Notes: generated by a model from the sequence alone, not told the origin. Shown: positions 2,894 through 35,530, counted from the stretch's first letter. The stretch is DNA of 64,000 nucleotides from an uncultured Acidimicrobiia bacterium (GCA_963698385.1 CAVOQP010000006.1:150318-214317), one strand, 5' to 3'. A program made the numbers and translations.

Positions 2894-4486
2894 ATGACGC
2901 ACCAGGCGCCTCGTACCCTCCACGTCGTCGGACTCGGTCCCGGTTCCCTCGACCGGGTGAGCGGGAGAACGCTGGAGCTCCTGTTGGACGCCGACTGCAC
3001 CGTGCTGCTCCGCACGACCGAGCACCCCGCCGCCGAGGAATTGTCAGCCCAGCGTGAGGTGCGTGGCTTCGACGAGGTCTATCAGCAGTCGGAGACCTTC
3101 GATGAGGTCTACGAGGAGATCGCTCGCCAGGTCGTGGCTCGGGCTTCCGAGGCATCGGTGGTCTATGCGGTCCCCGGCTCTCCCCTCGTCGGCGAACGGA
3201 CCGTCCCACTGATCAGGGCGCTGGCCTCGAAGGCCGGACTCACCATCGAGGTCCACCCGGCCGAGTCGTTCATCGATTGCTCGCTGGCCGCGGTCGGCCT
3301 GGACCCGCTGTTCAGCGGCCTCCAAGTGCTCGATGGACACGACCTGCCCGATCCGCTCGAACTGCACCTCCCCACCTTGATCGGGCATCTCACCCTCCCG
3401 ATCATCGTCGCCGACATCCTCGACCGTCTCCGTGGCCTCCTCCCCGATGACCAACCCGTCACCGTCCTGACGAACGTCGGTGGACCGGGCGAGACCGTGG
3501 AACTCACTGCGCTCACCGACCTGACCCCGGACCTGGCCGGCCTCAGGGTCTCCCTCTTCCTCGACCCGGGTCCGAACGGACTCCACGGAGCCATCACCAC
3601 GATGCGCAGGCTGCGGGTCGAATGCCCGTGGGATGCCGAGCAGACGCACCAGAGCATTCTTCCCAACCTCGTCGAGGAAGCCTTCGAGTTGTACGACGCG
3701 CTCGAGGCGGTGGGGGAGGGCGTGCCCGGCGAGGGAGTGGAGCCCGCCTGGGGCGCATACGGCGAGGTCGAGGAGGAACTCGGTGACGTGCTCCTCCAGG
3801 TCTTGTTCCACACCACCATGGGCGAGGAGATCGGCGGCGTCTCGCTCGACGGTGTGACAACCACTCTGCGGGAGAAGCTCGAGCGGCGCCACCCCCACGT
3901 CTTTGGTGACGTCGAAGCCGGCACGGCCGGGGAGACGCTCGATCGGTGGGAACGGATCAAGGCTGATGAGAAGCGGCGACAGTCCGCGCTCGACGGCGTG
4001 CCACGCTCCCTGCCGGCCATCCCGCGAGCGATGAAACTCCAGCAGCGGGCCGCCCGAGTCGGATTCGATTGGGACTCGGTCCCCCCGGTGCTCGCCAAGG
4101 TCCGCGAGGAGATCGGCGAGTTGGAGGAGGCGATCGGAACCGATCACGCGCCGCATGAGGTGGGCGACCTCATCTTTGCCGTCGTCAACCTCGCTCGGCA
4201 CCTCGGGATCGATCCCGAACTGGCAGCACGGCGGGCCGTGGATCGATTCGACTCCCGATTCCGGAGCGTCGAGGCCATGGCGGAGGGGCCGCTCGACGAG
4301 ATGACGCTCGACCAACTCGACGCCCTGTGGGAGCGGGCGAAGGAGTACGAAGTACGGAGTACGGAGAGGCAGAGAACGGAGAACGGGGAACGGAGCCAGA
4401 GGGACGACGGATGGGGGACGCGTGGAGGGAGTACGGAGTACGGAGAAAGAGGGCCCGAGCCAGGGCTGCGGGCTCCCGGCCCGTGA
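2894..4486 (+). CDS. mazG: MazG nucleoside triphosphate pyrophosphohydrolase, YabN-type with N-terminal tetrapyrrole-methylase-like domain; C-terminal ~45 aa encoded by tandem repeats
   Basis: N-terminus HVVGLGPGSLDRVS...LLLDADCTVLLRT resembles the TP-methylase fold. Two MazG/EEXXE-type repeats (EVEEELGDVLLQVLF... and EIGELEEAIG...EVGDLIFAVVNLARHLGIDPE). Immediately downstream of mfd, as is typical. Confidence 0.8.
   Translation: MTHQAPRTLHVVGLGPGSLDRVSGRTLELLLDADCTVLLRTTEHPAAEELSAQREVRGFDEVYQQSETFDEVYEEIARQVVARASEASVVYAVPGSPLVGERTVPLIRALASKAGLTIEVHPAESFIDCSLAAVGLDPLFSGLQVLDGHDLPDPLELHLPTLIGHLTLPIIVADILDRLRGLLPDDQPVTVLTNVGGPGETVELTALTDLTPDLAGLRVSLFLDPGPNGLHGAITTMRRLRVECPWDAEQTHQSILPNLVEEAFELYDALEAVGEGVPGEGVEPAWGAYGEVEEELGDVLLQVLFHTTMGEEIGGVSLDGVTTTLREKLERRHPHVFGDVEAGTAGETLDRWERIKADEKRRQSALDGVPRSLPAIPRAMKLQQRAARVGFDWDSVPPVLAKVREEIGELEEAIGTDHAPHEVGDLIFAVVNLARHLGIDPELAARRAVDRFDSRFRSVEAMAEGPLDEMTLDQLDALWERAKEYEVRSTERQRTENGERSQRDDGWGTRGGSTEYGERGPEPGLRAPGP
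4340..4486 (+). repeat. GA-rich short tandem repeat block (GTACGGAGTACGGAG / GAGAACGGAGAACGG units) forming the 3' tail of the mazG ORF
   Basis: Direct reading: gagtacgaagtacggagtacggagaggcagagaacggagaacggggaacggag ... gagtacggagtacggagaaagag. It encodes the low-complexity peptide YEVRSTERQRTENGERS...STEYGERG. Confidence 0.7.
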
Positions 4487-4498
4487 AACGAATCCGGG

Positions 4499-6130
4499 TT
4501 GGTGGGCCGGTGCTCCTACTCTGCCCGTGTGCTCATCGCACGCGATCTCCGCATCGAGGCCGGGGTCCGGGTTCTGCTCGACGAGGCCTCCTTCACCCTT
4601 CAAGCCGGCGACAAGGTCGGCCTCGTGGGGCGGAACGGCGCGGGCAAGACGACCTTGATGAAGACCCTTGGTGGGACCAGGGCACCTACAGGTGGGACGA
4701 TCACCCGTTCCGGCAGCCACGGCTACTTCTCCCAGGAAGCCCACATCCCCGACCCGCGTAGCCCGCACCTCACCGCGATCGAGCGCATCCTCCAGGCGCG
4801 GGGTATTGGCGAACTCTTCGTTCGCATGGAGGAGACCCGCCGTGCCCTCGAGCGGGTCTCGGACCCGGGGGAGATCGGGGCCTTCGTCCACCGCCTCGCC
4901 CGCCTGCAGGATCAACTCGACACCCAGGGCGGCTATGCCGCCGAGGCCGAGGCGAAGAAGATCGCGGCGGCTGTGGGGATCGCCAACGAGGACCTCGACC
5001 AGCCCATCACCACGATGTCGGGTGGCCAGCGTCGGCGGGTCGAACTGGCCCGCATCCTCTTCAGTGAGACGGAGGTGCTGCTCCTCGACGAACCCACCAA
5101 CCACCTCGACCTCGATGCCAAGGCCTGGCTGATGGAGTACCTCGCTGCCTACAAGGGTGGCTTGCTCGTGGTCAGCCACGATCTGCCGCTCCTCGACCAG
5201 TCGATCACGTCGGTGCTCGCCCTCGACAACGGGCACCTCGAGGCCTACAAGGGCAACTACTCCCACTTCCTCGATGAGCGAGAGCGTCGTCGCGAGCAGA
5301 GGGAACGGGAGCGCAAGCAGCAGGACCAGAAGATCGCCCAGTTGGAGTACACGATCAACAGGTTCCGTGGAACCACCGAGAAGATGGCCAAGAAGGCCAA
5401 GGCGATGGAGACTCGGGTCGATCGCATCAAGCGTGACCTCGTCGAGATCGAGACGAGGGGACGGGACACCAAGATCGCGTTCCCGCAGCCCGAGCCCTCC
5501 AACCGGATCCCGATCGAGGCATCCGGCCTCGCCAAGGCCTACGGCGACAACGTCGTGTTCGTCGACGTCGGTGTGGTCATCGACCGGGGCGAGACCTTCC
5601 TCATCATGGGACTGAACGGTGCCGGCAAGACCACACTCCTGCGGATCCTGGCCGGGGTCGAGTCCCACGATCTCGGCGTGGTGAACGTCGGCGGAAAGAC
5701 CACCCTCGGGTACTACGCCCAGGAGCACGAGCAGATCGACCCGACTCGGACCGTCTTTGCCCACGTCCGCGAGGTCTCCGACCTCCCCGATGTCACCATC
5801 CGCGGACTCCTCGGCAGGTTCCTGCTGGCCGACAAGGTCGACCAGGATGCCGGGACCCTGTCCGGCGGCGAGAAGACGAAGCTCGCCCTGGCCCAGGTGG
5901 TCCTCGCCCGGCCGAACGTGCTGCTCCTCGACGAGCCGACCAACAACCTCGACCCCCAGTCGAAGGAAGCGTTGCTCGAGGCACTCCACGAGTACCAGGG
6001 AACGATCATCCTCGTCAGCCACGACACCGACTTCGTCGCCCGCCTCCAACCCGACCGAGCCCTCCTCATGCCCGACGCAGAGGTCCGGTACTTCGACGAA
6101 GAGATGCTCGAACTCGTCTCGCTTGCCTGA
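4499..6130 (+). CDS. ABC-F family ATPase with duplicated ABC domains (EttA/Uup/YheS-like translation factor type); likely start at the GTG near 4526
   Basis: Two complete nucleotide-binding domains (GRNGAGKTT ... LSGGQRRRVELARIL ... LLLDEPTNHLD; GLNGAGKTT ... LSGGEKTKLALAQVV ... LLLDEPTNNLD) separated by a charged coiled-coil linker (RERRREQRERERKQQDQKIAQLE). No transmembrane domain. Confidence 0.8.
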   Translation: MVGRCSYSARVLIARDLRIEAGVRVLLDEASFTLQAGDKVGLVGRNGAGKTTLMKTLGGTRAPTGGTITRSGSHGYFSQEAHIPDPRSPHLTAIERILQARGIGELFVRMEETRRALERVSDPGEIGAFVHRLARLQDQLDTQGGYAAEAEAKKIAAAVGIANEDLDQPITTMSGGQRRRVELARILFSETEVLLLDEPTNHLDLDAKAWLMEYLAAYKGGLLVVSHDLPLLDQSITSVLALDNGHLEAYKGNYSHFLDERERRREQRERERKQQDQKIAQLEYTINRFRGTTEKMAKKAKAMETRVDRIKRDLVEIETRGRDTKIAFPQPEPSNRIPIEASGLAKAYGDNVVFVDVGVVIDRGETFLIMGLNGAGKTTLLRILAGVESHDLGVVNVGGKTTLGYYAQEHEQIDPTRTVFAHVREVSDLPDVTIRGLLGRFLLADKVDQDAGTLSGGEKTKLALAQVVLARPNVLLLDEPTNNLDPQSKEALLEALHEYQGTIILVSHDTDFVARLQPDRALLMPDAEVRYFDEEMLELVSLA

Positions 6131-6636: not shown

Positions 6637-7299
6637 CTAGCGAAGCGCTGCGCGGAGTTCCCGGACGGCGTCGGCCTTGCCCACGGGATGAGCGAGGATC
6701 GCCGATCCGGCGATGAAGTCCTCGGCGCCCGCCGCCCTCGCCGCCCCGATGGTGTGGGGTTTGATGCCACCGTCCACCTCGACACGCGTGGTCAGTCCGC
6801 GGGTGTCGATGAGCCGACGGGCTTCGCCGATCTTCCCCTCGACTTCCGGAAGATAGGCCTGGCCGGCGTAGCCGGGGTGGACAGTCATGAGGACGAGGAG
6901 GTCGATCCGCTCCCATGCCCCGTCGAGTACTGAGAGGGGAGTGCCCGGGTTGAGTGCAACCCCGGCCGCGGCCCCGACCGCGCGGACCTGGGTGAGCAGT
7001 CCGACGAGGTCGTGGACTGCCTCGACATGGAAGATGACCGTCTCGCAGCCGGCCTCGACGAAGTCGAGGACCGCCGTCTCAGGATGCTCGACCATGAGGT
7101 GTGCCTCGAACGGGAGTGTCGTGAGCGGGCGGGCTGCAGCCACGATGTCGGCCCCGAAGGTGATCGGAGGAACGAAGCTTCCGTCCATGACGTCCCACTG
7201 GATGCCATCGACCCCGGCGGACTCGAGATCGGCCACCTCGGTCGCGAGGTGCATGTAGTCGGCGCCGAGCACGGAGGCGATGATGCGGGCTGGGTGCAT
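6637..7299 (-). CDS. rpe: ribulose-phosphate 3-epimerase
   Basis: 220 aa. IIASVLGADYMHLATEVADLESAGVDGIQWDVMDGSFVP...HLMVEHPE...VDGG motif pattern typical of Rpe TIM-barrel. Confidence 0.85.
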   Translation of the reverse strand: MHPARIIASVLGADYMHLATEVADLESAGVDGIQWDVMDGSFVPPITFGADIVAAARPLTTLPFEAHLMVEHPETAVLDFVEAGCETVIFHVEAVHDLVGLLTQVRAVGAAAGVALNPGTPLSVLDGAWERIDLLVLMTVHPGYAGQAYLPEVEGKIGEARRLIDTRGLTTRVEVDGGIKPHTIGAARAAGAEDFIAGSAILAHPVGKADAVRELRAALR

Positions 7300-7318: not shown

Positions 7319-7344
7319 CTGCGTCTGCGTCTGCGTCTGCGTCT
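7319..7344. repeat. (CTGCGT)x4 hexanucleotide tandem repeat in the rpe/msiK divergent intergenic region
   Basis: Direct reading: ccctgcgtctgcgtctgcgtctgcgtcttg. Confidence 0.8.
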
Positions 7345-7506: not shown

Positions 7507-8649
7507 ATGGCGAACATCACCTTCAGAGGCGTCGGGAAGGTCTACCCGGACGGCACCCGGGCGATCGAGGACGTGAGTTTCGAGATCGGCGATGGCGAGT
7601 TCGTCGTCCTCGTCGGCCCATCGGGGTGTGGGAAGTCGACCCTGCTCCGCATGGTGGCCGGCCTCGAGGAGATCACCGAGGGTGAAGTGGCGATCGGAGA
7701 GCGGGTCGTCAACGACATCCCGCCCAAGGACAGGGACATCGCCATGGTCTTCCAGAACTACGCGCTGTACCCCCACATGTCCGTCTACGACAACATGGCG
7801 TTCGGCCTCAAGCTGCGCAAGTTCGCCAAGGATGACATCGATCGGCGCGTCAAGGAGGCGGCCCGGGTCCTCGAGATCACCGAGTACCTCGAGCGCAAGC
7901 CCAAGGCGCTCTCCGGAGGCCAACGACAGCGGGTCGCCATGGGCCGGGCAATCGTCCGCGAGCCCTCAGCCTTCCTGATGGATGAGCCGCTCTCCAACCT
8001 CGACGCCAAGCTTCGTGTACAGATGCGATCCGAGCTCGGCCTCCTTCATGCTCGTCTCAAGACGACGACGCTCTATGTGACCCACGACCAGGTCGAGGCG
8101 ATGACCATGGGCGACCGGGTGGCGGTCATCCGCAAGGGTCTCCTCCAGCAGGTCGACGCTCCCCAGGCGCTGTATGAGTCGCCTCTCAACCTCTTCGTGG
8201 CCGGCTTCATCGGGAGCCCCGCCATGAACTTCATCGGGGGCCAGCTCGTCGGTGGTCGATTCGACTTCGGCATCGGCACGCTCGCCGTCAACCGCCAGGT
8301 GAAGGGTGCGACCGGTCGGCTGGTGGCCGGCATCCGTCCTGAGTCGTTCTTCGTCGCCGACAGCGGTACGCCGGACGACCAGGTCGTCGAGGCCCAGGTC
8401 GACCTGGTCGAGCAGCTCGGGTCGGACGCCTACATCCATTTCGAGCTGGACGTACCGCCGACCATCACTCCCGACATTCGGGAACTCCTCGCCGATCAAG
8501 GCGAGGACGCCTCCGCGATCGGGGAGAGGACCAAGATGGTTGCACGGGTCGACCCGCACCGGGCTCCCCGGGCCGGGGAGCGGGTCAGGCTGCGCATCGA
8601 GACCTCCAAGATGCACTTCTTCGACGAAGATGGGGGTGCGGCGCTGTAG
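7507..8649 (+). CDS. sugar ABC transporter ATP-binding protein, MalK/UgpC/MsiK family
   Basis: ATG at 7507 (MANITFRGVGKVY) is in frame with track ORF 7012..8649. Walker A GPSGCGKST, signature LSGGQRQRVAMGRAI, Walker B FLMDEPLSNLD, H-loop YVTHDQ. C-terminal TOBE/MalK regulatory domain is present. Confidence 0.8.
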   Translation: MANITFRGVGKVYPDGTRAIEDVSFEIGDGEFVVLVGPSGCGKSTLLRMVAGLEEITEGEVAIGERVVNDIPPKDRDIAMVFQNYALYPHMSVYDNMAFGLKLRKFAKDDIDRRVKEAARVLEITEYLERKPKALSGGQRQRVAMGRAIVREPSAFLMDEPLSNLDAKLRVQMRSELGLLHARLKTTTLYVTHDQVEAMTMGDRVAVIRKGLLQQVDAPQALYESPLNLFVAGFIGSPAMNFIGGQLVGGRFDFGIGTLAVNRQVKGATGRLVAGIRPESFFVADSGTPDDQVVEAQVDLVEQLGSDAYIHFELDVPPTITPDIRELLADQGEDASAIGERTKMVARVDPHRAPRAGERVRLRIETSKMHFFDEDGGAAL

Positions 8650-10100: not shown

Positions 10101-13100
10101 ATGAGCATCGAGCCCGAGCATCGAGCCCGGACTCGCGCGGTCGCTGTCGCGCTCGTATTGGTCGCATGCACGGCCGGGACCCCCACCCCGGCACCGGACG
10201 TTCCGGAGGTCGCCCCGACCGAGGTGGATGTAGACGTAGACGTCGAACGCGATCCCTCCTTCCAACTCATGCTGCTCTGGCATCAACACCAGCCCTTCTA
10301 CCCCAAGGACGATGAGGGAGTTGTCACCCGCCCGTGGGTGCGAGTCCATGCCACCAAGGACTACGTCGACACGGCCACGCTCCTCGAGCAGTACCCCGAC
10401 GTCCACGCCACCATCAACCTCACCCCGGTGCTCATGCTGCAGCTCGAGGAGCTCCAAGCAGGCGTGCGCGACAGCTACTGGGTCCACTCCGAGATCCCGG
10501 CCGACGACCTGGATGATGACGAGAAGCGGTTCCTCCTGACCCGCCTCTTCGATGTCAACGCCCGGGTCATCGACCGCTTCCCCCGCTACCGGGAGCTCGC
10601 CGACCGGCGCACGGAAGCCGGCGGAGGCGAAGCCAACCTCGGAGTATTCACCACCGCCGAGTACCGCGACCTCCAAGTGCTCTTCAACCTCGCGTGGACC
10701 GACCCCGACTTCCTGACCGTGGCACCGCTCGCAGCGCTGGTCGCCAAGGGACGGGATTTCACCGAGGAGGACAAGGCTGTGCTCCTGGCCGAGCATGAGC
10801 GGATTGTTGGCGAAGTGTTCGAAGTGCACCGTCGGATGTGGGACGCCGGCCAGATCGAGGTCATCACCACCCCATTGGCGCATCCCATCCTCCCCCTCGT
10901 GATCGACACCTCGGTGGCGCTCGTCGGTGACCCGACCGCTGTCATGCCGGACGGAAGGTTCAACGAACCCGACGATGCCGTCGAACAGGTGGAGCGTGGG
11001 CTCGATGTCGCCGAACGCCTCCTCGGGCGCCGGCCAGTGGGGATGTGGCCGGGTGAGGGGGCCGTGAGCCAACCTGCCGCGGCAGTGATGTCGCGCGCCG
11101 GCATCCAGTGGATCGCCACCGGGGAGCCGGTGCTCGCCGCCTCGCTCGGCCGCGGAAGCGGATTCGCCCGAGGGGAGAACGGCGTCCCCGACGATGCGGA
11201 GCTTCTCTACCGCCCGTGGTCGGCGACCTTCGGCCGGAACCCGGATCTCCCCATCTTCTTCCGGGACCTCCGCCTCTCCGACCTCGTCGGCTTCGAGTAC
11301 TCGGGCATGAGCGGGGAGGACGCGGCGCAGGACTTCATGGACCGCCTGGCAGCCATCAAGGCGGCGCTCGGCCCGGCCGACCCGGGGCAGCCCTGGGTGG
11401 TGAGCGTGGTGCTCGACGGCGAGAACGCCTGGGAGCAGGACGACGACGACGGCAAGGACTTCTTCCACGCCCTCTACTCCAAGCTCTCCGGGGCCGACTG
11501 GCTGACGACCACGACACCGTCGGCCTACCTGGCCGCCCACGATCCACCGCAGGCACTCCCCGGTGAGGTGTTCCCTTCGTCATGGTTCCAGGCCAACTAC
11601 GCCACTTGGATCGGGGAGGACGAAGAGGCAGCCGCCTGGGACTACCTCATCGAGGCCCGTACCGACCTCACAGCCGCAGGCACCACCGGGGCGTATACCG
11701 ACGCGCAGTTGGCCGCTGCCCGCGAGGCGATCCTCTTCGCCGAGGGATCCGACTGGTTCTGGTGGTATGGCGCCGACCGGTGGTCGGGAGACGACGGCTA
11801 CTTCGACACAGCGTTCCGAGCGTGGCTCGCCCGCATGTACCGCGCCCTCGGACAGGAGGTACCCGGGTACGTGGACGTGCCGATCGTCGCTTCCGCCCCT
11901 TCCGAACCGTCGGCGACCAGCTCGGAGGTCATCACCCCCGTCATCGACGGAGTCCAATCCGAGGGGGAGTGGGCGGCTGCCACCGTCTACGGGTTCACCG
12001 ACGCCACTCCATCCCTCGTCGCCCTCGGCTTCGACACAGCCTCCCTCCATCTGCTCATCGACGGCTTCGGCCATCCGATCACGATCGAGCTGGGCGTCCC
12101 GTCGGGCATGGCCACCCGGGGCAGGACCATCGACGGCGCCCCCGTCGGATTCGGGGTGACCCACCAGCTCCAGGTGAGCGACGACCAAGCGTGCCTCCGC
12201 CCCGCAACCGAGGACGGCTCCCCCGACCTCACCTGCTCCCCGGCAGCGTGGAATTCGGGCCTGTGGGAGGCATCGATCCCGGTGACCGACATCGGGTTCC
12301 CTGGAGGCCGGGCGACCGGGTCCTGTTCCGGATAGTGGCCCCCGAAGGGCTCCTTCCCGAGTTCGCCCCCGGCTACGTCCAAGTCCCGGACAGCTCGACC
12401 GTTGACGTTCGTTTCGCGGCCATCGACCCGACTGGGGACGACACAGGGATCGGGACCTACACCTACGCCAAGGACGCGGTGTTCGGCTCCGGGTCGTACG
12501 ACCTCACCCGGTTCACGGCAGGCATCGATGGTGAGGATGTCGTTTTCACGGTCGAGGTCAACGCCCCGATCCGCAACCCGTGGGGGAGCGCAGTCGGCCT
12601 CTCCATCCAGACCTTCGACATCTACCTCGACACCGACCCGGGAGCCGGGACCGGCGCCCGCCTCCTCATCCCTGGGCGAAACGCCGCGCTCGCCGCCGGC
12701 AATGGGTGGGAGTACGCGGTCACCGTCGAGGGGTGGGACCCGTCCATGTACATCGCCGCGGCCGACGGCACGATCGAGGAGACGAAGCCGACCTTCAAGA
12801 CAGTCGTCCTCGGCGACAAGGGGAAGGTGCTCATTCGCATTCCAGCTCAACTCCTCGGCGGAGGCGACCCGGCGGACTGGGGCTACGTCGTTGCCCTCCT
12901 CGGCCAAGAGGGATACCCGTCTGGCGGAGTGCGTCGGGTCCGGGACGTCAACCCGGCAGCGGAGCAGTGGCGGTTCGGAGGTGCCCCCGAAGGCACGACC
13001 AACCACACCCGCATCATGGACCTCATCTGGCCCGAGGAGGGAGGGGTGCAGGGTGGAATCGGTGCCCAGGCAGGGTTCCTGTCCGGCTTCCCCCGCCTCG

Positions 13101-18849: not shown

Positions 18850-19686
18850 ATGGAACACGTGACGTGGGACTACCGGCCGACGTTGATCGACCCGGTCGCA
18901 TTCATCGCCTATTCGGGGTGGAACGACGGTGGTGAGGCCGCGACGAGTGCCATCGAGCACATGATCGACGTGCTCGGCGCCGAGCAGGTCGCAGGCATCG
19001 ACCACGAGGACTTCGCAGACTTCCAGGTGACCCGCCCGATGATCGTTCACGAGGAGGACGGAACCCGCCAGGTCACGTGGCCGGAGACCAGCGTCTTCGT
19101 GGCCTCCTCCCTCGGACGGGACATCGTCCTCATCGTCGGGGAGGAACCGCGGCTGCGCTGGAAGGCGTATTGCCGGGTGGTGGCCGGGGTCCTGAAGGAC
19201 CTCGACGTGGCCCGGTGCGTGACCTTCGGTGCGTTCCTCGGACAGGTCGCGCACACCTCCGAGCCCCCGATCGTCGGGGTGGCCTCCCCGGCGGTACAGG
19301 TGGCCCACGACCTGCTCTCGAGCTCCTATGAGGGGCCCACCGGCATCGTCGGGGTGCTCACCTCGGTCCTCGGCGACTTCGACCTCGACGTCACGAGCCT
19401 GTGGGCCGCCACACCCCACTACCTCGCAGGGACTGACAACCCCAAGGCCGCCCGAGCATTGATTGCCAAGGCGGAGCAGGTGTTCGGCCTCGAACTGGGC
19501 TCAGCCACGCTCGACGAGGCTGTCGAGGAGTGGGAGCAGCGGATAGAGGAGGCCGTGCTGGGCTCCGATGACCTGCAGGACTACGTCGAGCGCCTGCAGG
19601 AGGTCCATACCGAGATCGAAGGAACCGGCGGCAGGCTCGTGGAGGAGATCGAACGCTTCCTGCGGGACGACGGACCCGTCGAGTGA
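18850..19686 (+). CDS. PAC2 (proteasome assembly chaperone 2-like) family protein
   Basis: N-terminal PVAFIAYSGWNDGGEAATSAIEHM matches the actinobacterial PAC2 signature (V.AFEGWNDAG.AA). Confidence 0.6.
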   Translation: MEHVTWDYRPTLIDPVAFIAYSGWNDGGEAATSAIEHMIDVLGAEQVAGIDHEDFADFQVTRPMIVHEEDGTRQVTWPETSVFVASSLGRDIVLIVGEEPRLRWKAYCRVVAGVLKDLDVARCVTFGAFLGQVAHTSEPPIVGVASPAVQVAHDLLSSSYEGPTGIVGVLTSVLGDFDLDVTSLWAATPHYLAGTDNPKAARALIAKAEQVFGLELGSATLDEAVEEWEQRIEEAVLGSDDLQDYVERLQEVHTEIEGTGGRLVEEIERFLRDDGPVE

Positions 19687-20609
19687 GACCCGGCGTCGTC
19701 GTCGACACGCCGCGCCTCGACCGATGGCTTCCGGCCATCGCATCCCGCCTCCCCGAAGCCCATGTGACCTCCATCCCGGCCTGCGTCGACCCGTCGCAGG
19801 TGGTCGCAGCCCTCGTCTGGAAACCCGGCAGGGGTTCGCTTGTCCCCTTCCCGAACCTCCGACTCATCCAGTCGTTCGGTCACGGTGCCGACGCGCTGGT
19901 CCGAGATGACTCCCTTCCGCCCGTTCCCGTCGCACGTCTCGTCGACCCCGAGTTGGCCCGGGCGATGGCTCGCTACGTCCTCCACGCGGCGCTTCACCAC
20001 CTCCTCGAGGTCGACTCCTATCGGGAGGGCCAGGCGGCGGGTGAATGGAGGTCGCGACGACCCCGGTTCGCCTCTCGGTTCCCGGTGACCGTCCTGGGGT
20101 TGGGTGCCATCGGCGGTGAGGTGGCCAAGGTCGCCGCCGCGGCCGGGTTCCCGGTGCGGGGCTGGAGTCGAACGCCGAAGGACGCGCCCCACCCCATGTT
20201 CCACGGCAGGTCAGGCCTGGCCGGGGCAGTCGAAGGAGCCGGGATCGTCGTGAACGTGCTTCCCCTGACATCGGAGACGGAGGGACTGTGCGACGACACC
20301 TTCTTCCGGCTCTTCCGCGGTCGAGACACGCTGTTCGTGAACGTCGGCCGGGGAGCGACCGTCGACGAGGAAGCCCTTATCCGGGCCCTCGACGCGGATT
20401 CCGTCGGACACGCCACCCTCGACGTCACCCGTGAGGAGCCGCTCCCTCGGGCCAGCCCGCTCTGGAGTCACCCGCGGGTCACGATCACACCCCATGTCTC
20501 GGGACCCACCGAGATCGACTCGGCCGCCGACATCCTCGCGGCCAATCTGCGGCGGGCCATCGAGGGCGGGACGCCCGAGCACCTGGTCGACCGGGCGCGG
20601 GGGTACTGA
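19683..20609 (+). CDS. D-isomer-specific 2-hydroxyacid dehydrogenase family protein (glyoxylate/hydroxypyruvate reductase A-like)
   Basis: NAD-binding VTVLGLGAIGGEVAKVAAAAGFPVRGWSR. Catalytic region FVNVGRGATVDEEALIRAL...TPHVSG. Start overlaps PAC2 stop. Confidence 0.75.
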   Translation: MRPGVVVDTPRLDRWLPAIASRLPEAHVTSIPACVDPSQVVAALVWKPGRGSLVPFPNLRLIQSFGHGADALVRDDSLPPVPVARLVDPELARAMARYVLHAALHHLLEVDSYREGQAAGEWRSRRPRFASRFPVTVLGLGAIGGEVAKVAAAAGFPVRGWSRTPKDAPHPMFHGRSGLAGAVEGAGIVVNVLPLTSETEGLCDDTFFRLFRGRDTLFVNVGRGATVDEEALIRALDADSVGHATLDVTREEPLPRASPLWSHPRVTITPHVSGPTEIDSAADILAANLRRAIEGGTPEHLVDRARGY

Positions 20610-20635
20610 GGGCCGCAGCGCGGCCCAGTTCGACG

Positions 20636-20726
20636 TCCCAAGTCCCAAGTTCAAGATGTGCTGGCTGCGGGGCTGGGTGGTCCGTCGTCCGTCGTCCTCT
20701 GTCCTCTGTCCTCGGTCCTCGGTCCC
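20636..20726. repeat. short tandem repeat block: (GTCCCAA)x2 then heptamer series GTCCGTC x2, GTCCTCT x2, GTCCTCG x2
   Basis: Direct reading: gtcccaagtcccaagttcaag ... gtccgtcgtccgtcgtcctctgtcctctgtcctcggtcctcggtcc. Confidence 0.8.
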
Positions 20727-20734
20727 CCCACGCG

Positions 20735-20768
20735 GTCCGGCCCGGGGTGGAAGCCCCGGGCCGGACGG
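20735..20768. terminator. perfect 13-bp-stem hairpin between convergent genes (bidirectional terminator candidate)
   Basis: gtccggcccgggg-tggaag-ccccgggccggac. Lies between the stop of the 2-hydroxyacid dehydrogenase (+) and the stop of the livK-type gene (-). Confidence 0.6.
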
Positions 20769-20806
20769 TCAACTGGCGAGACGCCAGTGCATGGGGACGG
20801 CTTGGA

Positions 20807-25833: not shown

Positions 25834-27045
25834 ATGAGCGAAGTCTTCATCGTCGATGCCTGCCGGACGCCGATCGGGAAGCTGGGAGGCGTGCTGGCCC
25901 ACGTCCGCCCGGACGACCTGGCGGCCCACATCCTCGACCGCCTCATGCAGCGGAATCCGACGGTCGATCCGTCCCTGGTCGAGGACGTTGTGTGGGGTGC
26001 GGCGAACCAGGCCGGGGAGGACAACCGCGACGTTGCCCGGATCGCCGCCCTCCTCGCAGGCTTCCCGGTGGAGGTGGCCGGCGTGACCGTCAATCGGCTG
26101 TGTGGCTCCAGCCTGCAGGCGACCATCCAAGCCGGGCAGGCCCTCAAGGACGGCTGGGGCTCGTTCATGATCGCCGGCGGGTCGGAGTCGATGAGCCGTG
26201 CGCCTCTCGTGATGATGACGAAGCCGCAGTCAGCCTTCCGGCCCGGGATCCCCGAGGTTGCCGACACAACGCTCGGTTGGCGCCTCGTCAACCCCCGCTG
26301 GCCCGATGTCCACAGGGCGCTCAGCATGGGTGAGACCGCCGAAGAGGTGGCCGAGCGGTTCCGGGTCTCCCGCGACGACCAGGACGCGTTCGCTCTGGAA
26401 TCCCATCGTCGGGCGGTGGCGGCGATGGATGGGGGTCGTCTCGCTGGTCAGATCGAGGCCATCGAAGCCCCCCAGGATGCCCGGGGACGGCAGGTCGTCC
26501 GGGTGACCGAGGACGAGGGCCCGCGTCGGGAGGCCAACCTGGAGTCGATGGCCAGGCTGAAGCCGGTGTTCCGTGACGGCGGGACCGTCACGGCGGGGAA
26601 TGCCTCCCAGATGAACGATGGGGCCGCCGCCGTCCTGCTGGCAACGGGGGCCGCCGTCGAGCGGCACGGCCTGCAGCCGATGGCTCGCATCGTCTCGGGG
26701 GCCGCGGTGGGGGTGCATCCCGACATCATGGGGATCGGGCCGGTGCCTGCCAGTCGCAAGGCCCTCGAACGGGCGGGCCTGGCCATCGAGGACGTCGGTC
26801 TTGCGGAGCTCAATGAGGCATTTGCCTCCCAGGCGATCGCCTGCGTGCGGGAGCTCGGTCTCGACCCCGAGATCGTGAACACGAACGGCGGTGCCATCGC
26901 CAACGGGCACCCGTTGGGGGCGTCTGGGGCGAAGATCCTGACCACCCTCCTCCATGAGATGCAGGCGCGGGACGTCCGGTATGGGTTGGCGTCGATGTGT
27001 ATCGGGGTTGGCCAGGGAGTGGCGATCGTGGTGGAGAAGGTCTAG
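25834..27045 (+). CDS. acetyl-CoA C-acyltransferase (thiolase II family)
   Basis: MSEVFIVDACRTPIGK...NRLCGSSLQA (active Cys)...NGGAIANGHPLGASGA...CIGVGQGVA. ATG 25834 is in frame with track ORF 25756..27045. Confidence 0.85.
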   Translation: MSEVFIVDACRTPIGKLGGVLAHVRPDDLAAHILDRLMQRNPTVDPSLVEDVVWGAANQAGEDNRDVARIAALLAGFPVEVAGVTVNRLCGSSLQATIQAGQALKDGWGSFMIAGGSESMSRAPLVMMTKPQSAFRPGIPEVADTTLGWRLVNPRWPDVHRALSMGETAEEVAERFRVSRDDQDAFALESHRRAVAAMDGGRLAGQIEAIEAPQDARGRQVVRVTEDEGPRREANLESMARLKPVFRDGGTVTAGNASQMNDGAAAVLLATGAAVERHGLQPMARIVSGAAVGVHPDIMGIGPVPASRKALERAGLAIEDVGLAELNEAFASQAIACVRELGLDPEIVNTNGGAIANGHPLGASGAKILTTLLHEMQARDVRYGLASMCIGVGQGVAIVVEKV

Positions 27046-27145
27046 GGCGAGCCGCCCGAGCACGAGCATGAACCCGAGCCGGAGTCCGAACCGGACTCCG
27101 AGTTTGAGCCCGAGTCCGAGCGTGAATCCGAGCACGAGCCCGAGC
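27046..27145. repeat. degenerate tandem repeat block (GAGCCCGAG / GAGCACGAGC units) in the convergent thiolase/amidase intergenic region
   Basis: Direct reading: cccgagcacgagcatgaacccgagccggagtccgaaccggactccgagtttgagcccgagtccgagcgtgaatccgagcacgagcccgagc. The same GCCCGAGCACGAGCC core recurs at 29645-29735. Confidence 0.75.
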
Positions 27146-28519
27146 TCAGCTGAAGGGCGGTGGGCGGAATCCGAAGGTGCCGGCGGCCTCGGCCCTCCTC
27201 GACACTCCCAGCAGCAGGGCCTCGGCTCCCCATGGGGCGATGAGCTGGATCGAGTGGGGGAGGCCGGTGCCCTCGGTGAGGGGGGCCGTCAGGGCTGGGG
27301 TTTGCATGTGGTTGACGAGTGAGGCGAACCAGGCCAGGGCGATGCGGTACGGGTGATCGATGTCGTCGACGGTGATCATCGGCTGGCCGATCACCTTGCG
27401 ATTTGCACCGACGGCGGGCGTTGCCAGTATGTCAACCGAGTCGAACGCCCGCTCGGTGGCGGACTTCAAGGAGGCCTGCCAAGCGAGAGCGTCGACGAGT
27501 TGGTCGGACGTGATGCCGAGAGCGAGCAGGAGGCGCTCTTCGACCTCGGGGCCGTACTCCATGGTCGGGTCTTCCAGCCAGTCGCGGTGGACGGAGGCGG
27601 CTTGTGCTCCCATCAGCACGTTGAGCTCGCCCCACGGGGCGAGGGTGGGGGCGCTGATCTCCGTCACGGTCGCTCCGCTGTCGGCCAACTGGTCGAGTGT
27701 CCTGTGGAATGCCGCGGAGATGCCAGCATCGAGAGGTGCACTGGCGAGCCACTCGGCAGGCACGCCGATGCGGAGCGGCCAGCGGTCGACCGCTTCCGGA
27801 CGGTTCGGGATGCTCCAAGGATCCAACGGGTCGTACCCCTTCATGACCTCGAACACGGTGGCGAGATCGGCCGACGTACGTGCAAATGGGCCGACAGTGT
27901 CGACGGAGGCGGCGAGTGGGAAGACACCGGTGAGCGGGACCCGCCCGTGGGTGACCTTGAGGCCGAAGGTCCCCGTGAGGGCCGCAGGGACCCGCACGCT
28001 CCCGCCGGTGTCGGTGCCAATCCCGATCGGTGCGAGACCGCCGGCGACTGCGGCCGCCGAGCCACCCGACGAACCTCCGGGTGACGTCGTGAGGTCCCAT
28101 GGGTTCCTCACCGGACCGAACCAGTGGTTCTCGGAGGAGAAGCCGTACGCGAATTCATGGAGGTTGGTACGCCCCACGATCACGGTCCCCGCGTCTTCGA
28201 GCCTCTGGACGACTGTCGCCGAGACGGACGGCGTCTGGCGGTGGAAACCGGACCCGCAGGTCGTCACCTCCCCGGCCTGGTCGATGAGGTCCTTGAGGGC
28301 CACGGGGACACCGGTGAGGGGTCCCGGGTCGTCACCGGCTGCGAGCCGAGCGTCGAGGTCGGCCGCTCGGGCCATGACCCGATCCTCGGGGACGGAGGTG
28401 AAGGCGTTGAGCTGTGAGCCACGGATGCGGTCCAGGTGGGAACGCGCCACGGCGGTCACCGTCGTCTCGCCGGCCTTGACAGCGGCGGTGATGTCGGCTG
28501 CGGTCGACCCGACTACCAC
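27146..28519 (-). CDS. amidase signature (AS) family amidase (GatA-like)
   Basis: GGSSGGSAAAVAGGLAPIGIGTDTGGSVRVPAALTGTFGLKVTHGRV is the AS signature with catalytic Ser. Likely GTG start at 28519 rather than the track ORF start 28735, which overlaps the upstream gene. Confidence 0.8.
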   Translation of the reverse strand: MVVGSTAADITAAVKAGETTVTAVARSHLDRIRGSQLNAFTSVPEDRVMARAADLDARLAAGDDPGPLTGVPVALKDLIDQAGEVTTCGSGFHRQTPSVSATVVQRLEDAGTVIVGRTNLHEFAYGFSSENHWFGPVRNPWDLTTSPGGSSGGSAAAVAGGLAPIGIGTDTGGSVRVPAALTGTFGLKVTHGRVPLTGVFPLAASVDTVGPFARTSADLATVFEVMKGYDPLDPWSIPNRPEAVDRWPLRIGVPAEWLASAPLDAGISAAFHRTLDQLADSGATVTEISAPTLAPWGELNVLMGAQAASVHRDWLEDPTMEYGPEVEERLLLALGITSDQLVDALAWQASLKSATERAFDSVDILATPAVGANRKVIGQPMITVDDIDHPYRIALAWFASLVNHMQTPALTAPLTEGTGLPHSIQLIAPWGAEALLLGVSRRAEAAGTFGFRPPPFS

Positions 28520-29601
28520 GTGACCTCTCGGCCGTTGGGGAAGATCGCAACCCAGAGCTTGCCCGGGGGCACCTGGAGTGCAGCGCCGGAGGCATCCGTG
28601 AGATCGAACACCTTCGAGGTCGACGACCGTGACCACGTCCCCTTGGCGACGGCCCCGTTCGAGAAGACGAACGCATTGCCGGACCCGACGGTGTCCATGG
28701 CGGGGACGCAGGACCCCTGGTCGGCGGGTGGGCACTTGGAGTATCGATCGGCGAAGAGCACCACGATGGTCTGGGCCGTGATCGTCTCCTCAGTGGTCGT
28801 GTCTCCCTTGTCCGGGAAGACCGTGTGGGGCTTGGTGCCAGCGAAGCGGAGGTACCCCGACCCGTCGAAGTGCCAGGTGACGTCTTCCATGTCGTCGGAC
28901 CAATCGAACGTGATGGCGAGGGCCGGTTCGGTTCCCCGCAGGGGCCCGAAGTCGAAGAATCGGGGTGGGGGGTCGTCCTCGTAGCCTCGCCTGTCGGCTA
29001 TCTCCCGGAGGAGGGTGGTGTCGACATAGAGGTTGTGGGGTGCCGAGCGGTGGGAGACGCGGAACGCAGCCGGAGGCTCCTCCCCGATGAGGTGGACGTC
29101 GAGGCTGCGGATGAGCGACTGCACCCATGCCTGTGCCCCCGAGATCGTGAACGTGGCTCCGAGTGGGGCCAGGAGGGTCGGGTCTGTGGGTCGCCCTGAG
29201 CGGTTCGGGCCGAGGTAGTCGGTGTCGGACTGGAGGAAGAGGGCGATGAACCGAGTGAGACCTGCTTCGACGAGCATCTCATAGACGGCGTCGGCGTCCT
29301 CCAGGCCGGACTGTGGCCTTGCGTTCCAGTGATTGTCGACCTTCACGGCCATCACCCGGCGGTTGATCGAGTCTTCATCGGCGACGAACAGGCCGTTGAG
29401 GGGTGACTCGAACCCCGCCGGTGGTTCGGTGGTCGTGGTCGTCAGGATGGTCGTGGCAGGGATCGTGGCCCGGGGTTCGGTGGAGCCCTGGGTGGATTGT
29501 GGGGTGTCTGTGGGAGCGGATGTCCCCGTGGTGTCGTCGCCACCACAGGCGGCGACGACCAACAGGAGCGTCAGCAGGAACGCGATGAATCGGATGCGCA
29601 T
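28513..29601 (-). CDS. DUF3048 (YerB-like) lipoprotein
   Basis: ATG at 29601 is in frame with the track ORF. MRIRFIAFLLTLLLVVAACGG lipobox. VMAVKVDNHWNARPQSGLEDADAVYEMLVEAGLTRFIALF matches the DUF3048 N-domain. The upstream part of the track ORF (LVLVWLVLVLV) is simply the translated tandem repeat. Confidence 0.6.
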   Translation of the reverse strand: MRIRFIAFLLTLLLVVAACGGDDTTGTSAPTDTPQSTQGSTEPRATIPATTILTTTTTEPPAGFESPLNGLFVADEDSINRRVMAVKVDNHWNARPQSGLEDADAVYEMLVEAGLTRFIALFLQSDTDYLGPNRSGRPTDPTLLAPLGATFTISGAQAWVQSLIRSLDVHLIGEEPPAAFRVSHRSAPHNLYVDTTLLREIADRRGYEDDPPPRFFDFGPLRGTEPALAITFDWSDDMEDVTWHFDGSGYLRFAGTKPHTVFPDKGDTTTEETITAQTIVVLFADRYSKCPPADQGSCVPAMDTVGSGNAFVFSNGAVAKGTWSRSSTSKVFDLTDASGAALQVPPGKLWVAIFPNGREVTW

Positions 29602-29644
29602 GAGATGGCGCAGGATAGGGGGAGGGGCGTTATCGGCGGTCACA

Positions 29645-29735
29645 CGCCCGAGCACGAGCCAGACAAGCACGAGCACGAGCACGAGCCAGACAAGCACGAG
29701 CCAGACAAGCCCGAGCACGAGCCAGAGCGCGTTGT
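29645..29735. repeat. tandem repeat block (CACGAGC / CAGACAAG units) sharing the GCCCGAGCACGAGCC core with the 27046-27145 block
   Basis: Direct reading: gcccgagcacgagccagacaagcacgagcacgagcacgagccagacaagcacgagccagacaagcccgagcacgagccagagcgc. Confidence 0.8.
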
Positions 29736-29826
29736 GGGACTGCGCCACCACCCACGGCCCCCTACCCCGCACGAGTCCTTGCTGCGCTCGGCCGATGCGG
29801 GGGCCCCTTCCCCCCGCCTGCGGCGA

Positions 29827-29866
29827 GGGGACAGACATGTGTTGCGACGATGCGTTGTCTGTCCCC
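29827..29866 (-). terminator. 11-bp perfect-stem hairpin ~100 nt downstream of sodN, followed by a second 7-bp hairpin (ccccagc-gaa-gctgggg); candidate sodN terminator
   Basis: ggggacagaca-(18 nt)-tgtctgtcccc read directly. No U-tract, as is usual in high-GC genomes. Confidence 0.4.
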
Positions 29867-29967
29867 CCAGCGAAGCTGGGGGGAAGGTCCTGCCCCGGAG
29901 CGAAGCGAAGGGGGAGGTAGGGGGGAACGCGCGGGCCGAGCCTTCTGCCCCCGTGTCTGAACTCGCG

Positions 29968-30384
29968 CTAGCCGGGCGGATACACCCCGACGTTGGCCGA
30001 TTCGGCGGTCTGCCAGAAGATGTCCGCGATCTCATCGATGAGGCGAACCAGTTCCTCGGAGACTGCCGGGTCCATCGACTTCTTGGCGTCTCCGGCCTGC
30101 TTGATCGCTTTCCAGAACGTGTCGTGGAGTTGGGGGAACGCTTCGAGGTGGTGGGGCTTGAAGAAGTCCGTCCATAGGACCGACAGGTGGTGCTTCACCA
30201 ATTCGGCACGCTCCTCCTTGATCGAGATGGCCCTGGCACGGAAGACGTCATCCTCGGAGGCGTGGTACTTGTTGGCGCATTGAAGGACCGACTTGGCCTC
30301 GATCATCGCCTGGGCGGGGTCGTAGACGCCACAGAAGAGATCGCAATGGGCATGGGCGACGGTGGGTGGACGGAAGAGGCGCAT
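29968..30384 (-). CDS. sodN: nickel-containing superoxide dismutase precursor
   Basis: 138 aa. Pro-peptide MRLFRPPTVAHA followed by the Ni-hook HCDLFCGVYDPAQA. Overall similarity to Streptomyces SodN (..IKEERAELVKHHLSVLWTDFFKP..IFWQT). Position 5 of the hook is Phe (ttc) rather than the usual Pro. Confidence 0.85.
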   Translation of the reverse strand: MRLFRPPTVAHAHCDLFCGVYDPAQAMIEAKSVLQCANKYHASEDDVFRARAISIKEERAELVKHHLSVLWTDFFKPHHLEAFPQLHDTFWKAIKQAGDAKKSMDPAVSEELVRLIDEIADIFWQTAESANVGVYPPG

Positions 30385-30430
30385 GGGTGGCTCCTGGGGG
30401 TGGCTGACCTGCTGAAGATACACTCCCCGG

Positions 30431-30841
30431 GTGTCGAAGCGATGGGGACTCTTCCAAGTAGCCGAACACTCCATGGCGCCCGCCCTCCGATCGGGTGACC
30501 GAGTGGTGGCGATCCATCGTCCACTCGCGGCCGGTGTAATCGTGGTGTTCGAGGCCGCCGATGGGATGGTCATGGTGAAGCGAGTCGTCGGGCTCCCCGG
30601 GGACACCGTCACGATCGGCCACGGGATGGTGTTGGTCAACGGGACGCCACGCGAGGATGTCCTCGACACACCCGGTGAAGGGTCGTGGAGCATCGGTCCG
30701 GGGGAGTGCTTCGTGCTCTCCGATGCCAGGGACTTGACCTTGGCCGACAGTCGTACGTTCGGCCCGATCGACGTCTCGTCGATCCTGGGCACCGTCGCGT
30801 TCCGCTATCGACCGCTCTCCCGGATGGGACGCCCTCGCTGA
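30431..30841 (+). CDS. sodX: S26 signal-peptidase-like NiSOD maturation protease
   Basis: Divergent from sodN with a 46-bp gap. EHSMAPALRSGDRVV (S26 catalytic Ser box) and VKRVVGLPGDTVTI box. 136 aa, as for SodX. Confidence 0.65.
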   Translation: MSKRWGLFQVAEHSMAPALRSGDRVVAIHRPLAAGVIVVFEAADGMVMVKRVVGLPGDTVTIGHGMVLVNGTPREDVLDTPGEGSWSIGPGECFVLSDARDLTLADSRTFGPIDVSSILGTVAFRYRPLSRMGRPR

Positions 30842-31859: not shown

Positions 31860-35425
<3,566 letters not shown>

Positions 35426-35460
35426 GAATCGAGGTTCTTGACAAAGCTACGCGATCTCGG

Positions 35461-35530
35461 CCCGGGCCCGAGCCCCGAGTCCCGAGCCCCGAGTCCCGAG
35501 CAAGCGGAAGATCGTCCGTCGTCCGTCGTT
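35461..35530. repeat. tandem repeats (CCCGAGC/CCCGAGT)x4 followed by (GTCCGTC)x2-3 in the PFOR/metG intergenic region
   Basis: Direct reading: cccgggcccgagccccgagtcccgagccccgagtcccgagcaagcggaagatcgtccgtcgtccgtcgttcg. Confidence 0.8.

Follow-up and report, generated by a model that had tools for sequence, protein, structure and literature searches.

The DNA examined here is a stretch of 64,000 nt from an Acidimicrobiia genome, called the window throughout, and its subject is the short tandem repeat arrays that it carries at six places, numbered as sites 1–6 in coordinate order (Table 1). An earlier note on this sequence had described them as a family of short repeats recurring at gene ends. 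All six sites were recovered as described by Tandem Repeats Finder (TRF), with which tandem arrays were called and whose overlapping rows were merged before counting; the AABBCC order of units at 20680–20725 can be read directly from the sequence. On a gene map that combines Pfam domains with a home-made caller of codon usage, for which the window served as training set, five of the sites are intergenic and site 1 forms the C-terminal tail of an open reading frame (ORF). By period the arrays form two groups: sites 1, 3 and 6 are made of heptamers, and sites 2, 4 and 5 of hexamers or multiples of three.

In translation, site 1 is a low-complexity tail of 47 codons at the end of the TP_methylase-MazG ORF (2894–4486). 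It lies downstream of the last MazG/PRA-PH domain, with Pfam domains stopping at residue 442 of 530, and its period is 7 (GGAGTAC, GGAGAAC), not the 8 read earlier. Site 2 occupies the divergent spacer between rpe (6637–7299, minus strand) and an ABC ATPase gene (about 7507–8649, plus strand) and sits upstream of the start codon of rpe, at a distance of 20 nt. The spacer of site 3 is convergent, between a 2-hydroxyacid dehydrogenase gene and a periplasmic binding-protein gene; 29 nt separate its GTCCCAA pair from its GTCCGTC pair, TRF resolves the second array into GTCCGTC ×2.6 at 20680–20697 and GTCCTCT/GTCCTCG ×4.6 at 20694–20725, and this second array contains no A at all. Site 4 takes up all of the 100 bp between the convergent thiolase (stop 27043–27045) and amidase (stop 27146–27148) genes. 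Site 5 stands between sodN, of which it is downstream, and a DUF3048 gene, 35 nt upstream of the DUF3048 lipoprotein start (MRIRF..., 29610), and has no T across about 86 nt. Taken together, sites 4 and 5 are covered by TRF periods of 6, 12, 15, 18, 21, 27 and 30. Site 6 is found between metG (stop 35535) and the start of the pyruvate:ferredoxin oxidoreductase (PFOR) gene.

Table 1. Repeat arrays of the six sites and the hairpin beside site 3 (window coordinates)
Feature	Unit and copies	Coordinates	Strand	Remarks
Site 1, composite heptamer arrays	GGAGTAC/GAAGTAC, GGAGAAC, GGAGTAC	4340–4486	+	TRF, sequence
Site 1, sub-array	GGAGAAC ×7.6, 77% matches	4342–4395		TRF
Site 1, sub-array	GGAGTAC ×2.6	4428–4445		TRF
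Site 2, perfect hexamer	CTGCGT ×4.3	7319–7344	+	TRF
Site 3a	GTCCCAA ×2.3	20635–20650	+	TRF; 26 nt past the stop of the 2-hydroxyacid dehydrogenase gene (19683–20609)
Site 3b	GTCCGTC ×2, GTCCTCT ×2, GTCCTCG ×2, GTCCCCC	20680–20729	+	Direct reading; AABBCC order
Hairpin	14-bp G+C-rich stem, GGAA loop, no U tract	20735–20766		Folds; between convergent genes, outside the repeats
Site 4, degenerate hexamer	NNNGAR × about 15, core CCGAGC/CACGAG	27046–27145	+	TRF periods 12/18/30 at 27055–27145
Site 5	CACGAG/CCCGAG hexamers and CCAGACAAG nonamers	29642–29735	+	TRF periods 6/15/21/27 at 29642–29726
Site 6a	CCCGAGC/CCCGAGT ×5	35467–35501	+	TRF; perfect at period 14, ABABA order
Site 6b	GTCCGTC ×2.6	35512–35529	+	TRF; 6 nt from the metG stop

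The number of arrays in the window is well above expectation. Merged TRF arrays amount to 46 at a score of at least 30, 27 at a score of at least 36 and 10 at a score of at least 50, and 100 dinucleotide-preserving shuffles of the window give 21.1 ± 4.7, 7.6 ± 2.9 and 0.72 ± 0.83 at the same thresholds. Perfect runs of at least 2.5 copies, compared with 200 second-order Markov simulations, single out one period: five runs of period 7 are observed against 0.02 simulated (simulation maximum 1), period 6 shows a slight excess (2 against 0.57), and the counts for periods 5 and 8–11 match the simulation.

The same preference is seen in relatives of the window. A search with the window amidase, whose relatives in the genome scan come from Acidimicrobiia genomes only (best amino-acid identity 68%), provided a related set of 80 Acidimicrobiia loci, named L001, L002 and so on and totalling 1.23 Mb. 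A metagenome scan with the 2-hydroxyacid dehydrogenase returned nothing above 37% identity, and no close relative of the window was found in the genome or metagenome collections scanned; bacterial loci from that metagenome search (0.78 Mb) were reused as an unrelated control. Exact-protein look-ups for three genes beside the sites matched a single short contig for one of them and nothing for the other two. Arrays scoring at least 50 occur in the related loci at 6.8 per 64 kb; the window, with its 10, thus exceeds its class only moderately. At a score of at least 45 the related loci hold 19 arrays of period 7 and six of period 14, and none of period 4, 5, 6 or 8; perfect runs of at least three copies number 15 at period 7 (0.0 expected), two at period 6, six at period 5 and none at periods 8–11. 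The heptamer is the sole over-represented non-triplet period in these loci, and heptamer runs of at least 2.5 copies are found 26 times in them versus once in the unrelated control. The view of the earlier note that such arrays are uncommon in compact bacterial genomes consequently holds for the control loci and fails for Acidimicrobiia.

Location separates the heptamers from the triplet-period arrays. With coding and intergenic calls that are approximate in the related loci, because the home-made codon-usage caller sets the boundaries, 30 of the 35 arrays of period 7 or 14 are intergenic, one is partial and four are coding, spacers making up about 10.6% of the DNA; triplet-period arrays, by comparison, are mostly coding (168 of 199). 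Several different heptamer arrays lie abreast in one spacer in L004, L009, L017, L025, L040 and L061, much as at sites 3 and 6. The arrays thus show what characterises the class of long simple sequence repeats (SSRs): units of 5–11 nt beyond chance, an excess at period 7, and non-triplet periods mainly in non-coding DNA. Sites 2, 4 and 5, with period 6 or multiples of three, are a loose fit to the heptanucleotide members of that class.

Comparison of orthologous spacers indicates that the window arrays are young. L001 is syntenic with the window over 16.9–43 kb in alignment blocks of 74–80% nucleotide identity, but continuity is lost at sites 3, 4 and 5, and at site 6 the alignment shows a gap of 48 nt. 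Arrays are missing from every orthologous spacer covered, that is, for sites 3–6 in L001 and for sites 3 and 4 in L002. The site 3 spacer measures 198 bp in the window and 84 bp in L001, where it has a (GGTT)4 tract and no heptamers; in L002 it is about 125 bp, again with no heptamers. At site 4 the stop codon of the thiolase gene directly adjoins that of the amidase gene in L001 (spacer about 0); in L002 about 10 nt separate the two. The site 5 spacer is 357 bp in the window versus about 110 bp in L001. For site 6 the lengths are 109 versus about 55 bp: a block of roughly 48 nt that holds the CCCGAGY array is missing from L001, and an unrepeated ...GGGCGGTCGTTCG takes the position of the GTCCGTC repeat of site 6b. 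Since the L001 and L002 spacers lack arrays, we conclude that the arrays arose in the window's own lineage.

Turnover can be followed between other related loci. In L020 and L024, whose flanks are 95–96% identical, GCAATCA is present as about two degenerate copies in one and as 9.6 perfect copies in the other, and for TGCCGAC one locus has 3.7 copies against about 1.5 in its counterpart. L024 is labelled Gammaproteobacteria, and its identity to the Acidimicrobiia locus L020 over 350 bp on each side of the spacer suggests that it is probably mis-binned. One orthologous spacer contains GAACGTA ×3.4 in L028 and GAACGCA ×5.3 in L023, a single substitution having been homogenised over all units, and in two other pairs (L004/L009 and L025/L028) the same spacer holds unrelated units, i.e. 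a complete replacement. L011 and L012, which are 99.9% identical, differ by one substitution within an array of equal length. Other lineages have heptamer arrays on the flanks of the ABC-F ATPase gene whose window orthologue is at 4529–6130. In L025 (20959–20991 and 19305–19349) the (CGTTCAT)n array stops 3 nt short of the ATG of this gene and (GGTCTCC)2(TGTCTCC)2 comes after its stop, and in L028 (GGCTGCT/GGCAGCT)8, at 20651–20708, lies past the stop. These units are unlike those of window site 1, which is upstream of the same gene. L023 carries an inverted pair of one heptamer, (GCAGAAC)5.3 at 4083–4119 and (GCGTTCT)4.9 at 4342–4375, about 220 bp apart.

Arrays that are specific in period, intergenic, restricted to one lineage, absent from the nearest relatives and variable in copy number and unit between relatives are probably young, rapidly turning-over slippage SSRs in spacers, which would place them in the known heptanucleotide long-SSR class, here in Acidimicrobiia. 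Slippage itself, and with it any reason for the preference for 7 nt, is what we infer from these patterns. The slipped-strand expansion suggested earlier agrees well with them, given the matching adjacent units (of AABBCC type at site 3 and of ABABA type at site 6), the absence of the arrays in relatives and the contrast of 2 and 9.6 copies between L020 and L024. By such a mechanism the nascent strand would slip during replication wherever a short proto-repeat lets it shift by the length of a unit, which is 7 nt or at times 14 or 6 nt, and the slip would duplicate or delete adjacent units; point mutations followed by more one-unit duplications would then leave blocks of identical neighbours of the AABBCC or ABAB kind. 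Arrays would persist where a change of length is harmless, in spacers and, at site 1, in a dispensable C-terminal tail. They would lengthen the spacers that host them, and their exact sequences would not be needed for expression of the flanking genes.

Several observations weigh against this account in its plain form, and one is that units are shared between unlinked sites. The exact 14-mer GTCCGTCGTCCGTC occurs in the window at 20680 and 35514 only, which confirms the earlier finding that the sites at 20.7 and 35.5 kb have GTCCGTC in common; the identical GTCCGTC block of sites 3 and 6 extends to 16 nt, and at both sites a GTCCCRA-type array, a spacer and the GTCCGTC block follow each other in the same order and orientation. 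Exact CCGAGCACGAGC is restricted to window positions 27056, 27128, 29648 and 29711, all within sites 4 and 5, and GCCCGAGCACGAGC is also common to these two sites. The CCGAGC/CACGAGC core is present at three loci within the 64 kb, in keeping with the CCCGAG-type sharing proposed before, GTCCGTC at two, and CCCGAGC at site 6; no other window unit recurs outside its own site. In the related loci ACCGAGA is found in L004 (two spacers, with one-mismatch ACCGAAA at a third), L009 (two spacers) and L012, and TGGCTGT at three positions of L009 and also in L032. Identical-unit pairs at unlinked spacers number 18 against 2.7 when letters are permuted within units, and unit pairs at a distance of at most 1 number 98 against 40 ± 6 expected. 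Such sharing is not expected from plain slippage at proto-repeats that are independent of each other; it could point to copying from site to site, to slippage that depends on sequence or to selection of particular units. In addition, some spacers hold heptamer arrays in several lineages, though of unrelated units, and the array state could be favoured at such spacers. The window arrays themselves would be unstable, judging by their relatives.

The sharing of units is what could be expected of a dispersed, genome-specific family comparable to the STRR sequences, the Xanthomonas GGGAATC or the Beggiatoaceae TAACTGA repeats, in which a few units are seeded by copying, recombination or insertion and slippage only modulates them. 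Sites 3 and 6 would then be copies of one arrangement, sites 4 and 5 would be linked through CCGAGCACGAGC, with CCCGAGC at site 6, and the recurrence of ACCGAGA and TGGCTGT within single other Acidimicrobiia genomes, like the excess of identical-unit pairs, would follow. However, a unit is limited to two or three sites in 64 kb and most occur once, dozens of units rather than one family are found across the class, and no terminal repeats, target duplications or mobile-element genes adjoin the arrays; the unrepeated L001 sequence at the GTCCGTC site, moreover, fits growth in place from a proto-repeat. We consider such a family unlikely. The word 'family' used earlier can be kept in the weak sense that units recur above chance. 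This recurrence, and the common order of parts at sites 3 and 6, would fit an STRR-like family, unit-dependent slippage or selection. A broader idea, which we offer as speculation and to which we give similarly little credence, is that Acidimicrobiia may have a lineage-specific process that creates or spreads heptamer arrays, with genome-preferred units copied between unlinked spacers and the array state perhaps kept at certain spacers, e.g. as a binding platform of 7-nt footprint or as an insulating spacer between genes. If true, it would make the arrays more than passive debris of slippage.

A functional role in cis appears rather improbable, even though some features invite it. The arrays might be sites for a protein of roughly 7-nt footprint (e.g. 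of the cold-shock type), might load Rho, or might form G-quadruplex or other non-B structures that tune neighbouring genes. Several spacers do retain a heptamer array across lineages despite the change of unit, and some arrays abut start or stop codons, as the one 3 nt before the ATG in L025. B. subtilis CspB is reported as a binder of heptamer direct repeats, with one protein on each heptamer, according to its citation in PMC4679880. The minus strand of site 6a reads (CTCGGGR)5 and by sequence pattern contains a canonical G3+ quadruplex motif at 35473–35497, on the mRNA-sense strand about 56 nt before the GTG (35411) that is probably the PFOR start; this motif resembles the tested heptamers of Xanthomonas and Nostoc (PMC4692102). 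Yet quadruplex motifs are found at one of the six repeat sites and number 12 in the whole window anyway, the arrays are not conserved in the nearest relatives, and their units are very diverse. Nor is the strand consistent relative to transcription: sense-strand (C–G)/(C+G) of the 21 arrays in co-directional spacers ranges from –0.37 to +0.40, with 11 positive, six negative and four zero values, and both site 6 arrays are G-rich in the sense direction. These mixed signs argue against Rho loading or other strand-specific roles in RNA, and the Rho-site reading, a tract with C in excess of G in the sense strand downstream of a gene, was rejected since no consistent sense C excess exists. Rfam gave no match at gathering thresholds anywhere in the window, and no tRNA or transfer-messenger RNA gene is present in it.

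Array-bearing spacers show no preferred type either: 14 are co-directional, seven convergent and four divergent, in line with the shares of spacer length (P = 0.42). As spacer type tracks spacer length, gene 3' ends are not preferred, and the statement that the arrays recur 'at gene ends' is true only in the trivial sense that five sites are intergenic and one is an ORF tail. The earlier suggestion of transcript-end structures finds no support in RNA folding of site 3, where the arrays pair weakly and the stable hairpins (20610–20626, 20735–20766 and 20773–20787) stand beside them. A scan for promoter and terminator consensus sequences at site 3 found nothing; at 20735–20766 the terminator pattern was missed because the hairpin has no T run. 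We think that this hairpin is likely a conserved bidirectional, U-less terminator, because L001 and L002 each have a hairpin of different sequence in the corresponding position. With its two neighbours, likewise G+C-rich and devoid of a U tract, it takes up the rest of the convergent site 3 spacer.

Contingency loci, in which a change of copy number toggles adjacent genes, were also raised by the earlier note in the form of phase variation, and we regard them as very unlikely here. Similar tracts do vary in copy number between close relatives, and sites 2, 5 and 6 are 20–56 nt upstream of start codons, where length could shift promoter or untranslated-region (UTR) elements. But convergent stop codons enclose sites 3 and 4, so that array length can affect neither frame nor promoters there, site 1 follows the last domain of its protein, and no array is in a functional reading frame. 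The tracts are short (2–5 copies) and partly degenerate, and the genes beside them (rpe, metG, PFOR, thiolase) belong to housekeeping metabolism and not to the surface or restriction kind.

It is still harder to believe that sites 4 and 5 are coding, the former as an acidic (X-E)n extension of the thiolase by read-through of its TAG and the latter as a hydrophobic (LV)n N-terminus of the DUF3048 protein. Periods at both sites are multiples of three, and site 4 continues in frame after the TAG, reads GEPPEHEHEPEPESEPDSEFEPESERESEHEPELS up to a stop and varies mostly at third positions; the in-frame stretch at 27043–27151 comprises 35 codons, is of acidic (X-E)n type (PEHEHEPEPESE...) and ends with TGA. 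However, the thiolase domain is complete at the last residue before the TAG, the extension has no in-frame start codon, and the segment is missing in L001 and L002, where the stops abut or nearly do so. A long ORF at 28513–29838 spans site 5, but it is spurious, since the true DUF3048 start is at 29610, downstream of the repeat, with a signal peptide of lipoprotein type (MRIRFIAFLLTLLLVVAAC), and L001 starts at the equivalent Met. Both coding readings are thus largely refuted. Chance or assembly artefact is equally implausible: high-GC sequence does give short tandem matches (21 TRF rows at a score of at least 30 in the shuffles), but the observed counts are above all shuffles and the same class of arrays recurs in many assemblies that were made independently, by different projects and with different sequencing technologies.

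Nothing in these results indicates a new regulatory element at the genes concerned. Their interest lies in adding Acidimicrobiia, a widespread and mostly uncultured group, as a further high-GC lineage with a sharp peak at 7 nt and hence an independent case for the unexplained preference for heptamers. The arrays can make a spacer de novo, 100 bp in the case of site 4, where the stop codons of the nearest relative abut. The tracts are candidate markers for strain typing, similar to variable-number tandem repeats (VNTRs), and they are likely to trouble assembly and gene calling, as exemplified by the MazG tail, the acidic 'extension' of the thiolase and the false N-terminus of the DUF3048 protein.

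Some neighbouring features were noticed in the course of the analysis. Downstream of sodN, an imperfect palindrome at 29806–29887, with arms of 32 nt that are 81% complementary, holds a C6...G6 mini-hairpin at 29862–29884. The exact sequence of this hairpin does not recur in the window or the related loci; similar modules of a C-run/G-run hairpin are found in tandem units of 77 and 286 bp in L009 and in a spacer insertion of L020, and such modules may represent a class of elements in Acidimicrobiia resembling repetitive extragenic palindromes (REP) or miniature inverted-repeat transposable elements (MITE). sodN itself (nickel superoxide dismutase) is divergent from a small gene of the S26 signal peptidase family (29968–30841), presumably the usual pair of SodN and its maturation protease, SodX. 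At 35424–35439 a palindrome, AAGAATCGAGGTTCTT, precedes the Shine-Dalgarno sequence and start of PFOR; it is kept in L001 at about 3550–3570 (AAGAACCGATGTTCTT), unlike the adjacent repeat block, and may be an operator or an element of the 5'-UTR. A GH57 glycoside hydrolase gene has, immediately behind its ATG and before a lipoprotein-like signal sequence, a perfect 13-nt duplication (AGCATCGAGCCCG ×2, 10103–10129); since it shifts the frame, the start or N-terminus as annotated may be of recent origin or wrong. Finally, GC skew follows gene orientation, the coding strand being C-rich: it is slightly negative at 0–20 kb (plus-strand genes) and +0.06 to +0.12 at 20–37 and 42–48 kb (minus-strand genes). 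Because of this dependence the change of sign at 20 kb is no evidence of a replication origin or terminus, and an origin or terminus as the reason for the strand switch at about 20.7 kb was rejected.

Heptamers with 4-nt spacers, giving an 11-bp periodicity beside the –10 region, make up the sites of SARP regulators. The arrays described here have contiguous units (period 7) and are also found between convergent stops, and operators of this type were rejected for their wrong periodicity; the likeness to the Streptomyces SARP sites (PMC5930380) is that of heptamer direct repeats in actinobacterial intergenic DNA. The contingency SSRs of Haemophilus and Neisseria (e.g. PMC12721329) are likewise slippage-prone tracts, some of them upstream of genes. 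They differ in having units of 1–5 nt (occasionally 7) in long perfect tracts, and in their placement inside the reading frame or core promoter of a surface or restriction gene. In Borgs, too, tandem repeats are known, with longer units. According to PMC9879509, Borg repeats are fast-evolving, recently formed and independently arising, and so resemble the arrays here in their rapid, recent and independent origin, but they belong to archaeal extrachromosomal elements and are selected to create disordered protein regions, unlike those of the window.

Closer parallels are found among intergenic heptamers. The TAACTGA repeats of Beggiatoaceae (PMC4679880) are direct repeats of 2–6 copies in spacers, some directly upstream of starts, as here; they consist of a single unit with a strong bias to positions just upstream of starts, whereas the units here are diverse and no positional or strand bias was found. 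GGGAATC of Xanthomonas and GGGGA(T/C)T of Nostoc are G-rich heptamers that form G-quadruplexes (PMC4692102). As in the arrays here, the Xanthomonas and Nostoc heptamers are intergenic, vary in length and sequence at the same spacer between close relatives and sometimes form inverted pairs, which the inverted heptamer pair of L023 resembles. Site 6a fits their sequence pattern, but G3 tracts exist at one of the six sites and there is no genome-wide consensus. For the STRR heptanucleotides, units known to us are CCCCAGT, TTGGTCA and CAACAGT; a look by eye at the TRF consensus units of the related loci, with no dedicated search, showed none that seemed a rotation or complement of these. Three STRR heptanucleotides are reported for Calothrix PCC 7601, as cited in PMC4692102. 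The STRR of Calothrix and Nostoc share with our arrays a non-coding location, the presence of one unit at several unlinked places and the lack of an established function, and they differ in comprising few families with many copies genome-wide, against many units at one to three places each in the sequence covered here; the units seem to differ as well.

To our knowledge, Acidimicrobiia were not among the genomes surveyed by Mrazek, Guo and Shah in 2007. Our literature search found no paper that joins Acidimicrobiia with tandem repeats, and a 2025 survey of short tandem repeats mentions neither heptamers nor Actinobacteria. The 2007 survey, as it is related in PMC4679880 and PMC4692102, describes long SSRs with units of 5–11 nt as patchily distributed across bacteria, with heptanucleotides the commonest in many of them and with Burkholderia, cyanobacteria, three Actinobacteria and Xanthomonas as the richest genomes, and proposes slippage related to the polymerase footprint as the cause. 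In the features given there, the class is the nearest match to the arrays of the window: tandem units of 6–7 nt beyond chance, an excess of heptamers, non-triplet periods mainly in intergenic DNA, and high-GC genomes among the hosts. The arrays described here differ from it in their short tracts (2–5 copies) and in the frequent succession of several different units within one spacer.

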